A stretch of 64,000 nt of DNA from Patescibacteria group bacterium (GTDB taxonomy: Bacteria; Patescibacteriota; Patescibacteriia; UBA9934; GWF2-40-263). Shown here one piece after another: positions 45,067 through 57,862 of the stretch. The notes beneath the pieces are model-generated. The model saw only the letters and a program-made list of their open reading frames with translations, had not been told where the DNA came from and did not search any database. The stretch covers positions 353,181-417,180 of the forward strand of contig SCUM01000001.1 in NCBI GenBank assembly GCA_004297215.1. The letters are read 5' to 3'. The first letter of the stretch is position 1; each line of letters begins with the position of its first letter. The position numbers were made by a program, and so were the translations under genes.

Positions 45067-45143
45067 TGGTGGAGCCGACGGGATTCGAACCCGTAATGCC
45101 AGGTGTCAACCCTAGTGAGGTTGCCAATTACCTCCACGGCCCC
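45067..45143 (-). tRNA. Atypical tRNA: Ala-type acceptor stem (G3:U70, A73) with anticodon loop GUUGACA (reads UGA; GAC in a shifted register)
   Basis: 77-nt cloverleaf GGGGCCG/CGGCTCC-ACCA, D stem GAGG/CCTC, anticodon stem CTAGG/CCTGG, T arm ACGGG-TTCGAAT-CCCGT. Confidence 0.8.
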
Positions 45144-54799: not shown

Positions 54800-55885
54800 A
54801 TGGACCTCCTCAAGGAGCTCGACCAGGTGAAAAAACGCGTGGCGGACCTCGAAACCCGATTGGCCGATCCGGGCGTGCTTTCCGATCCCAAGAAACTCCG
54901 CGAGGCCGGCATCGAGTACCAGGAAGCGAAAGACCTGCTTGAGATCGGGGAACGCTATGCGCAGGCCGCCTCGGGGCTCGCGTCCGCAAAGGACATGCTT
55001 CGCGACTCGACCGACCCGGAGATGCGCGCCTTGGCCCAAACGGAAATCGAGGAACTTGCGGGAAAACTCCCGAAGCTCGAGGAGGCGTTCACCCTCGCCC
55101 TGCTCCCTCCCGATCCGCTCGATAAGAAAAACAGCATCGTGGAAATCCGCGCTGGCACGGGCGGCGACGAGGCCGCGATCTTCGCGGGCGAACTGTTGCG
55201 CGCCTATTCGCTGTTCGCCGAACGCCAGGGCTGGAAGGTGTCGCCGGTCACCATGAGCCGCGGCGAGGCGGGCGGGTTCAAGGAAGCGATCGTGGAGATC
55301 GAGGGGAAGAACGTCTACAGCAAGCTCAAGTTCGAATCCGGCGTGCATCGCGTGCAGCGCGTGCCGGAGACGGAAAAGGCCGGACGCGTGCACACCTCGA
55401 CCGCGACGGTGGCGGTCATGCCCGAAGCCGAGGAGATCGACGTACGCCTCGACCCGAAGGACCTGAAAATCGAAGCGAGCACCAGCCAAGGCGCGGGCGG
55501 CCAGAGCGTGAACACCACCTACTCCGCCATCCGCATCGTGCATCTTCCCACGGGCATCGTCGTGCAATGCCAGGACGAACGCAGCCAGGCGCAAAACCGC
55601 TTGCGAGCCATGCAGATCCTGCGCGCCCGCGTGTTCGCGCACGAGCAGGAAAAGGCGGCCAAGGAACGCTCCGCCGCGCGCAAGTCGCAGATCGGCTCCG
55701 GCGACCGCTCGGAAAAGATCCGCACGTACAATTTTCCCCAGGACCGCGTCACCGACCACCGCATCGGGGAAAACTTCCACGACATCCCCGGCATCATGAA
55801 CGGCAATCTCGCCCCGATCTTGGACGCGTTGAACGCGGCGGAATTGAAGGAGAGATTCGAGGCGTTAGCAGAGAAAGAAGCTTGA
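54800..55885 (+). CDS. prfA: Peptide chain release factor 1
   Basis: VPET, GGQ and RTYNFPQ motifs. Confidence 0.97.
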
Positions 55886-55914
55886 AAAGCGAAAGGAGTG
55901 CGTAAGAAAGAGGG

Positions 55915-55971
55915 TTATCCACAGAAATGTGGGTAACGCCCCTTGACGCGTCGTTTAGGGAACGATAAGCT
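55915..55971 (+). promoter_or_regulatory. Inverted DnaA-box-like pair plus sigma70 promoter
   Basis: TTATCCACA (55915) and TGTGGGTAA (55928); TTGACG-17-TAAGCT (55943-55971). Confidence 0.65.
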
Positions 55972-55978
55972 GCTTCTC

Positions 55979-56890
55979 ACGTTGATGAGGCAGAAACGAA
56001 CCGACGACGTCCGTCAGGACGACCGAACGGGCGAAAAGCCTACGCAGCGTGCAAAGTGAGATGACGTCGCTCGAATCGAATGAAGGCCCCGCGAGGGAGA
56101 CCGACAGGAGAAAAGAGCGAGGATCAGGAATCTTCTGAATCATTGATGGGAATCTCTGGTGGTCCTCCGTGACTTACTGGAACCCTCCCATCAGTGCCAT
56201 CAGCCTCCCCGCCGTGAAACAGCGGAATAACCTGGCGCATGTGCATGCGTCTGGTCCAGGAGGAGCGCCGGCTCATCGAGTCGGAACCGGTCCCATTCCG
56301 GAAGGTGGAAAGCAGAAGAAGGTTTGCGGGGTAGCTGGGGAGGAGAAAGACCTCCATGCGAGCCGCAATTCAAGTCGTCGGACATGGAAGCCCGCAATTG
56401 CGCGGTTTCACCTAGAGGACGCTAATAACGTCCGCATAGGTCGCGAATGTCGGAGGGTCGCAAGACCCTAGGGATCAAGAGGCGATTCATCGCTACTTCC
56501 CTTCACTGATGACGCTCGGTGCAGCGATCCTGCACGACAAGTCATGTTTGACACCCTGCCATGGATCGCAAGATCACCAACATGGCTAGGTCCGAACGTC
56601 TTTGAACATGCCGATCCGGAGCCGAACGAGAGTAACATCTCCAGTAGGAAGGTGAGGTGGCTGGTGCTCTCGGGTGCCAGGAAAGACGTCGGGAACGTTC
56701 CCGATCGATATCGAACCGGCGCGTCAGGCATCTGGCGCGTGACATTCGACACGGTGGGTCCCGTTGGGATGTAGGAAGTAGGAAGAGCGCGTGCGCTCGG
56801 ACGAAACTACGTCTCGCGGGCCACCCGTGAAGGATTGCGAGTTGGTCAACTCCAGCGAGCACCTGAGGCCCTAGCGAAAGCGAAGGCCTC
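55979..56890 (+). ncRNA. Large structured ncRNA of unrecognised family
   Basis: No credible ORF; many nested helices, GNRA tetraloops, G-U pairs on the + strand, upstream promoter and terminal hairpin. Confidence 0.75.
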
Positions 56891-56935
56891 TTGAATTTTC
56901 ATTTCCGAACGTTCGCGCTAGGGTACCATGCGCCT

Positions 56936-57862
56936 ATGACGGTATTCGAGGCCCTGCAATGGGCCAGCGGCAAACTCAAGCCCCATGCGGAATCGGCCAT
57001 GCTCGACGCTGAGGTGCTGCTTGGGCATGCCTTAGGGCTTCCAAAGGCATGGGTGTTCTCGCATTTCGAGTACGAGCTGAAGCCGTACGAGGCCGACAGG
57101 TTCGCATCGTCCGTCGCGCGGCGCATGAAGCGCGAGCCGGTGGCGCACATCATCGGCCAAAAGGAATTCTACGGCCGCAAGTTCCGCGTCACTCCCGCGA
57201 CCCTTATCCCTCGACCAGAAACGGAGCTGCTCGTCGAGCACGCGCTCAGGGCGAGCTACCCCTCTCCTTTAGAAGGAGAGGGCATGGGTGAGGTCTCGCG
57301 AGACAAGGACATGGGTGACGTGCTCTTCGCCGACATCGGGACCGGCAGCGGCGCCATTGCCATTTCCCTTGCCGCCGAATCCGGATTTCCGGCCGTCGCA
57401 ACGGACGTGAGTCGCGAAGCCCTGGCTGTCGCGAAGAGCAATGCCGAAGCGCTCGGCGTTTCCGACAAGGTGGATTTCCGGCTCGGAAATCTCCTGGAAC
57501 CGGTCACGGCCATCTTCAAGAAACTCGGAGACGCGTCGCCGGTAACGCACCTTGTCATCTGTGCCAACCTGCCGTACCTCACCGCGGAACAGGTCGCCTG
57601 CACGGACGCCGACGTAAAAGACTTCGAGCCGCATTCCGCCCTCGTCGCGGGCGAAGACGGCCTGTCCTGTTACTGGCAATTGTTCCGTCAGCTAAAGCAG
57701 AACCGCGGCCTGTTCCCCGCCCGCGTCACGGCCCTCATCGAGATCGACCCGTCGCAGCGCGACAAGGCCGTCGCCCTCATCACGCACGACTTCCCCGCCG
57801 CCAAGCCTGAAGTCCTGAAAGACCTTGCCGGCCTCGATCGGGTCATCTTCGCCGACCTATGA
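56936..57862 (+). CDS. prmC: Release factor glutamine methyltransferase PrmC/HemK
   Basis: LIPRPETE, DIGTGSG and ANLPY motifs. Confidence 0.95.
   Translation: MTVFEALQWASGKLKPHAESAMLDAEVLLGHALGLPKAWVFSHFEYELKPYEADRFASSVARRMKREPVAHIIGQKEFYGRKFRVTPATLIPRPETELLVEHALRASYPSPLEGEGMGEVSRDKDMGDVLFADIGTGSGAIAISLAAESGFPAVATDVSREALAVAKSNAEALGVSDKVDFRLGNLLEPVTAIFKKLGDASPVTHLVICANLPYLTAEQVACTDADVKDFEPHSALVAGEDGLSCYWQLFRQLKQNRGLFPARVTALIEIDPSQRDKAVALITHDFPAAKPEVLKDLAGLDRVIFADL

Follow-up and report, generated by a model that had tools for sequence, protein, structure and literature searches.

A predicted large structured RNA gene between prfA and prmC in one family of Patescibacteria

Introduction

To our knowledge, bacteria have few large structured RNAs other than rRNA and introns, and each class that has been solved showed a new architecture. 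OLE RNA is conserved in sequence and lies beside its partner gene oapA. GOLLD and ROOL are described in PMC12286853 as RNA-only cages formed via A-minor and kissing contacts, and the same source assigns GOLLD a conserved 3' part and a variable 5' part. For ROOL, only 10 highly conserved nucleotides are stated in PMC5737381. DnaA is presented as both a positive and a negative regulator at promoters (PMC11317965; PMC5835720), and the E. coli protein prefers, in the account of PMC11317965, box pairs spaced 2-3 bp.

The window, that is the whole stretch of 64,000 nucleotides that was analyzed, belongs to a tiny groundwater bacterium with a genome of 0.98 Mb. In an earlier note on this DNA the interval between prfA and prmC was read as a stand-alone, multi-domain non-coding RNA of GOLLD, ROOL or OLE size, possibly a new family or a ribozyme. 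The stand-alone reading is supported by synteny in 50 genomes and builds further on strand-biased tetraloops, compensated helices, frame-breaking indels and an own promoter and terminator. The ribozyme option proved poorly supported, because there was neither a family-wide sequence core nor a match to a ribozyme model. We describe the stretch as a predicted stand-alone RNA gene (probability roughly 0.9) and as a member of a new, real family of large RNAs. No description of this RNA was found in the open-access literature covered; the supplements of PMC5737381 could list a related motif.

Results

The interval between prfA and prmC

The interval and its borders carry the following features, given in window coordinates.

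54800..55885, + strand: prfA (release factor 1), upstream neighbour, with Pfam PCRF and RF-1 domains
55915..55923, + strand: DnaA box with perfect consensus by sequence, 28 nt ahead of the -35 hexamer
55928..55936, - strand: second, inverted DnaA box with one mismatch, 15 nt ahead of the -35 hexamer
55943..55971, + strand: sigma-70-type promoter, TTGACG (55943-55948), 17 nt, TAAGCT (55966-55971)
55979..56897, + strand: predicted large non-coding RNA of ~920 nt, fold z -5.15, start by consensus, no Rfam match
56865..56899, + strand: intrinsic terminator, GAGGCC/GGCCUC stem with short U-rich tail, pairing probability 0.95-0.98
56919..56924, + strand: candidate -10 element (TANNNT pattern) of a separate, near-leaderless prmC promoter
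56936..57862, + strand: prmC (release-factor methylase), downstream neighbour, with Pfam PrmC_N and methyltransferase domains

The interval measures 1,050 nt, has a G+C content of 57% as compared to 63% in the flanks and is present as a single copy in the host genome. It is covered without differences by one contig of run X1 (55500-57283), which is possibly the source and therefore not independent. The start of the RNA at 55979 was inferred as the A of an AC dinucleotide that lies 7-9 nt past the -10 element in nearly all loci of the family described below. The promoter and terminator claimed earlier were not called by the generic scanner; the promoter fits the genome's own CTTGAC-17/18-TANNNT pattern (40 sites), in a layout common to 48 loci, and the terminator stem is paired with a probability of 0.95-0.98. 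The terminator also closely resembles that of the relative G012.

Comparison with known RNAs and proteins

In the window, no Rfam family reached its gathering score, and within the region three matches at chance level were obtained at E<=10. As the earlier note had held, the stretch is neither RNase P nor tmRNA; full-length RNase P, tmRNA and 23S rRNA were located elsewhere (C1:584581, C2:7938 and C1:620594). Models of GOLLD, ROOL, OLE and raiA gave no match at gathering score or, within the region, at E<=10, and 20 relatives yielded none at E<=1. A reading as 6S RNA was rejected, as no model match was obtained anywhere in the genome (the control was recovered in just 7 of 14 cases) and the 5' helix closes locally rather than forming a 5'/3' rod. 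SRP RNA was likewise rejected: there was no match to the small SRP RNA and no Ffh M domain in the genome. No phage match was found at the locus, and sixty viral matches all fell on one 16-nt hairpin. Elsewhere in the window, ARAGORN called a tRNA-Ser(TGA) at 45067-45143 (- strand), one of three such calls in the genome, which also scored 35.7 bits against the tmRNA model.

The stretch might instead encode small unannotated proteins or be neutral, hairpin-rich filler, and a 100-codon + strand ORF is indeed present in the window copy. Against this, none of the eight short ORFs tested matched Pfam, in line with the earlier statement that the stretch holds no credible gene, and the longest ORF varies between 19 and 211 codons across loci. 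A protein-coding signal did not appear in the coding check either, since merely 92 of 576 pairwise indels (16%) are in frame, and long-range helices are compensated. Both readings are largely refuted and very improbable.

Fold of the window copy

Folding of the + strand yielded -383.7 kcal/mol (z -5.15; 0 of 20 shuffles equaled it), as compared to z -2.34 for the - strand of the same stretch. The predicted fold contains the following parts.

55978..56051, + strand: 5' domain closed by CACGUUG/CAGCGUG, pairing probability 0.99
56141..56196, + strand: 11-bp helix CAUUGAUGGGA/UCCCAUCAGUG with an arm, probability 0.95-1.0
56444..56748, + strand: domain of several hairpins enclosed by CGAAUGUC/GACAUUCG, taken tentatively as H3 of the 3' junction, probability ~0.79
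56750..56829, + strand: long arm CACGG...CCGUG with irregular pairing, taken tentatively as H4 of that junction, probability 0.83-0.99

The local 5' helix begins at an equivalent place in most relatives. The 3' strand of the CGAAUGUC/GACAUUCG domain aligns with the H3 strand of G024. The arm at 56750..56829 aligns both with H4 of G024 and with the arm at the 3' side of G012, but was missed by the covariance model R1 described below.

All four helices that had been named earlier (56001/56374, 56444/56741, 56592/56682 and 56141/56186) were found where they had been placed. Three of them have pairing probabilities of 0.5-1.0 over most pairs, whereas CCGACGAC/GTCGTCGG is unpopulated (probability 0.00; forcing it costs 4.2 kcal/mol). 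The named GNRA hairpins are present as well, with loops at 56091, 56460 and 56568 and another at 56148; the GC-GAAA-GC element is a 2-bp stem within the terminator. Two further statements did not hold. Nearly the whole stretch had been said to pair, while the MFE fold pairs 65% of the bases, and G-U pairs, which had been said to favour the + strand, occur in equal number on both (23 of 300 pairs vs 23 of 286). The strands are told apart by fold energies and by tetraloop asymmetry, not by G-U counts. With 4 GNRA and 0 UNCG hairpins the window copy is at the low end of the family for tetraloops, and it was not among the top windows in a genome-wide scan of tetraloop density.

Distribution of the family

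A BLAST search over 61 genomes matched only 38 nt of the promoter, in one genome of the same genus, and neighbour genes were therefore taken as anchors. The region before prmC was extracted from 59 family genomes and one f7 genome, and further regions were reached via coordinates and prfA loci. A unit of the same build (promoter, AC start, terminator) precedes prmC in 50 of 73 family genomes, of which 48 were fully analyzed and two (G022 and G061) lie at contig breaks. Of the others, 16 are without the unit, four have shorter atypical units without a DnaA box and three could not be judged. In sister families the unit was detected in none of 61 regions examined, and in 57 of 60 such regions the gap is at most 362 nt (one stops where its contig does).

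The 48 units stem from 19 genera and range from 518 to 1718 nt (median 728), a 3.3-fold span. A TTGAC-type promoter precedes each of them, and an AC start is present in nearly all. A hairpin followed by a U-tract was found by script at the end of 46 of 49 loci scanned, the window copy not being among them. The window copy fits the family build in position, DnaA box, promoter, AC start, terminator and + strand fold. Its sequence is not alignable with that of the same-genus copy, and a structure-aware score between the two is weak (z 2.2), so that its assignment to the family is based on where it lies, on the build of its promoter and on a weak alignment of the 3' part, the core model having missed it.

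The promoter-plus-TTACCG pattern occurred in 17 of the 73 family genomes, with one copy each and always at this locus, and a looser pattern over 301 genomes of the class yielded 13 matches outside the family as compared to 13 control matches. A metagenome scan with PrmC returned one distant locus. From a PrfA scan of 185,579 genomes few close relatives emerged, one of which was added as a tree row. Candidatus Uhrbacteria, Komeilibacteria and Falkowbacteria are among the named PrfA relatives, and the labels on the closest rows seem to be wrong. With the RNA of G086 as query nothing was found in five same-genus genomes without the insert, in a search that had no positive control.

In the PrfA tree (49 rows; G012 left out) the well-supported branches require at least four gains or losses of the unit: the non-carrier G073 is nested among carriers, and the carrier G086 among non-carriers. 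In G087 and G088 (L143, L150), which are very close to G086 (L162), the whole unit is absent and an upstream nucleotidyl-transferase-like gene abuts prmC. Such clean presence or absence hints that alleles are exchanged when the conserved flanks recombine. The shorter units of G006, G017, G014 and G030 (L117, L133, L135, L163) occupy the same site, are 450-600 nt long and folded (z -2.7 to -14), and have a TTGAC promoter and no DnaA box. In G002, G004, G015 and G047 the site before prmC holds other promoter-gene-terminator cassettes.

Close relatives differ by entire hairpin modules, which were duplicated or dropped. A four-hairpin module is present as a tandem duplicate inside the RNA of G003 and G074 (L124, L137), which gives a direct view of growth.

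These patterns bear on the possibility that the RNA is a ribozyme or the relic of a mobile element, such as an ORF-less group II or group I intron, a HYER, a retron or another template of a reverse transcriptase (RT). Its size and multi-domain fold would suit such an origin, as would the clean presence or absence in close relatives and the site itself, an insertion hotspot at which the RNA-less G036 carries a 305-aa RT gene (L145:1262-2179). However, models of group I and group II introns, HYER and small self-cleaving ribozymes gave no match here or in 20 relatives, the RNA is a single copy with its own promoter and without a phage match, and it has no invariant sequence of catalytic type. In addition, RVT_1 is absent from the host genome, and across the family RT and the unit do not co-occur: 15 of the 50 carriers lack an RT and 10 of the 16 non-carriers have one. 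We regard such an origin as improbable. RTs occur in 51 of the 73 family genomes, many with several and some split in two frames.

Position relative to prmC

In most loci the unit is directly upstream of prmC, even where genes are inserted after prfA, which would agree with a leader or attenuator that acts in cis, either to control prmC or as a sensor of termination. However, the terminator is followed by a candidate prmC promoter, that is a TANNNT 4-20 nt ahead of the prmC start, in 32 of 48 loci, a count made without background control. Moreover, 620-790 nt of other units separate the RNA from prmC in four g8 genomes, and prmC is kept without the unit in 16 family genomes. The leaders known to us are all far smaller than this RNA, which also counts against this reading, and we give it little probability. 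In one of these g8 genomes, G076, the separating DNA contains two tRNA genes (L139:1468-1617); among 20 relatives scanned this is the only one in which tRNAs adjoin the unit.

RNA signatures and covariation

Tetraloop hairpins with at least three Watson-Crick pairs were counted in the 48 loci (40.5 kb). GNRA hairpins numbered 159 on the + strand as compared to 23 on the reverse complement, and UNCG hairpins 94 as compared to 14; in a prfA control of 30.9 kb the tetraloop hairpins were balanced (29 vs 26). In a loop census of the family, GGUGCAAA was seen 10 times (0.75 expected) and CCUNAAAA 20 times (3.2 expected). Eight units that were folded gave z values of -1.9 to -8.6.

Covariation was checked in within-genus alignments of relatives and did not refute the RNA: compensated helices were present. 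In genus g3 (five sequences) both partners differ in 25 of 132 pairs, as compared to 11.8 in shuffled alignments (0 of 500 reached this) and 4-5 when slid, and a long-range helix of 20 pairs holds six of the 25; the counts were 20 of 149 pairs in g5 and 17 of 305 in g7, and all these figures lean high because the sets are small (3-5), related and themselves the source of the structure. The consensus folds of four genera beat column shuffles with z -9 to -14 (eight shuffles each). No conserved pseudoknot or kissing pair of at least 5 bp was found in four small alignments.

A predicted four-way junction near the 3' end

Sampling, which was run on 38 of the 48 loci, recovered a near-perfect four-way junction near the 3' end in g3, g7, g8, g16, g20, g23, g27 and g29. 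The g5 consensus has the same junction strands, which makes about nine genera altogether; none was recovered by sampling in g25, g11, g12 and g1. The two strands of the closing stem change together (GUCC/GGAC, CUCC/GGAG, UUCC/GGAA, CCUU/AAGG). An AA internal loop is frequent in the third arm, and the fourth arm is long and irregular. Over the first five pairs of H4 in 15 sequences from seven genera, 15 two-sided cells were counted as compared to 4.3, and 0-3 when slid, with hand-chosen anchors. In 5 of 22 additional loci, a leave-genus-out profile found the same motif with a score that at most 1 in 25 shuffles reached. The covariance model R1 of the junction matched one of 41 other loci and failed on g1, g3, g8 and g25; its matches over 151 genomes were 14 genomes of the training set, G061 and a marginal one in f4. 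A descriptor search for four-way junctions was too permissive and is not counted as evidence.

The window copy was not matched by R1 at E<=10, and two placements of the junction conflict. In placement 1, H4 would lie at 56694-56765 at a cost of 13.5 kcal/mol, and the profile score, in a nearby register, was reached by 3 of 200 shuffles. In placement 2, which consists of helices 56444/56748 and 56750/56829, the junction would close at +1.9 kcal/mol with extra hairpins in it; this placement can be aligned to H3-H4 of G024 as well as to G012 at its 3' end and terminator. We tentatively favour placement 2.

Promoter and DnaA boxes

The stretch delimited earlier begins at 55915, which is a DnaA box that had gone unmentioned. 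The inverted pair formed by the two boxes is the only one in the genome by the pattern used. A box with at most one mismatch from TTATCCACA lies within ~100 nt of the -35 element in 46 of 48 loci; among the other CTTGAC promoters of the host genome, 4 of 39 have one. The distances of reverse boxes from the -35 element fall into clusters at 15-17, 25-26, 36, 46-48 and 57-58 nt. With one value per genus and distance, their phasing amounts to r 0.70 at a period of 10.5 (n 27) vs 0.21 at a period of 13, kin not being independent, and that of forward boxes to r 0.47 (n 18). The genome encodes a DnaA with the RDHTT motif, which reads the DnaA box.

Forward boxes at 11 other promoters of the genome share the phase (r 0.66), while five reverse ones do not. 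DnaA boxes precede 15 other promoters here, and the proposed control is therefore not specific to this RNA. By eye, we take these promoters to include those of mraZ (-264110), greA (+194495), recQ (C2 -78386) and the 23S region (-624215), and presumably also those of a tRNA-like gene (+273474) and of a 487-nt leader before a DksA-like gene (-721123), all but recQ on G000 C1. A DnaA regulon for growth and stable RNA is possible in the host.

Two conserved DnaA boxes could also mark an element that acts as DNA, either a DnaA sink of the datA/DARS kind or a secondary origin primed by its own transcript. Yet there are merely one or two boxes, all upstream of the -35 element and phased to it, and UNCG and GNRA loops and G-U-tolerant changes are signatures of RNA. 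The locus at 409 kb of contig C1 is distant from the GC-skew flips at ~180 and 790 kb and is therefore not an origin. A role as a DNA element appears quite improbable.

Discussion

We propose that the RNA works as a DnaA-gated, self-folding scaffold with the 3' junction as its recognised part, a reading that we place just short of an even chance. A sigma-70 polymerase would transcribe from 55979 to the terminator, independently of prmC. DnaA bound on one helix face upstream of the -35 element may tie the RNA level, in either direction, to the replication or growth state. Packing of the RNA into a compact particle, whether monomeric or oligomeric, would be brought about by its GNRA, UNCG and T-loop-like loops together with A-rich internal loops. 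The junction, with its closing YCC/GGR stem, the arm with the AA internal loop and the long arm, may be recognised by a partner protein or by another copy of the RNA and so would serve as a docking handle while the arms grow and shrink freely. The RNA would be accessory rather than housekeeping. A scaffold fits better than a catalyst or sensor because structure is kept without sequence, growth is modular and the RNA is dispensable.

The nearest rival to the scaffold is a bulk RNA, for which any large nuclease-resistant fold would serve: a stable decoy or sponge that absorbs a nuclease, toxin or RNA-binding protein, or a store of nucleotides for a scavenging cell. Extreme sequence turnover with folding kept, the 3.3-fold length range, extra-stable tetraloops and repeated loss would all be expected of it, but the 3' junction, whose stems covary, is a specific feature that persists from genus to genus, and the loop census contains no repeated single-stranded motif of the CsrA-sponge type. 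We consider such a bulk function unlikely.

If the scaffold reading is extended, the family might form a class of its own among giant bacterial RNAs, with lengths of up to 1.7 kb. It would resemble eukaryotic scaffold lncRNAs in having a small conserved junction on a modular, freely evolving body, and transcription under DnaA would let ultra-small cells make the particle in step with the cell cycle; this wider view we find somewhat doubtful. About 0.1% of a streamlined 1-Mb genome is given to this one RNA. Its sequence changes faster than the neighbour proteins while the fold is kept, and alignment-based screens would therefore miss the family. The fifty natural variants, of 518-1718 nt, are a ready series for the minimal core of a giant RNA, and the phased DnaA boxes provide a first opportunity, in Patescibacteria, to test whether a large RNA is linked to the control of replication.

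By comparison with described systems, the RNA would work most like GOLLD and ROOL, being a member of neither, nor of OLE or raiA. With GOLLD, as described in PMC12286853, it shares a length of >800 nt, a multi-junction fold and a conserved 3' and a variable 5' part. GOLLD is set in prophages or tRNA islands, whereas this RNA is chromosomal and vertically kept at one locus, gives no model match, has a far wider length range and a DnaA-box promoter, and yielded no pseudoknot of at least 5 bp. ROOL averages 581 nt and is credited with three pseudoknots and three phyla (PMC5737381, PMC12286853), whereas the present RNA is confined to one family and gives no model match to it.

Like OLE RNA (RF01071), it is a stand-alone, large chromosomal RNA at a fixed locus with a scaffold role, here a proposed one; it differs in adjoining prfA and prmC instead of oapA and in its fast sequence turnover. 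The raiA motif, in the account of PMC5737381, is likewise an orphan structured RNA in a conserved gene neighbourhood and probably not cis-regulatory, but it is much shorter, highly conserved and found in Firmicutes and Actinobacteria, and its model gave no match. Finally, the DnaA-regulated promoters of nrdA, mioC and polA, as presented in PMC11317965, resemble the one described here in having consensus boxes upstream of a sigma-70 promoter, whereas in this family the target is a non-coding RNA and the boxes are mostly single or form an inverted pair.
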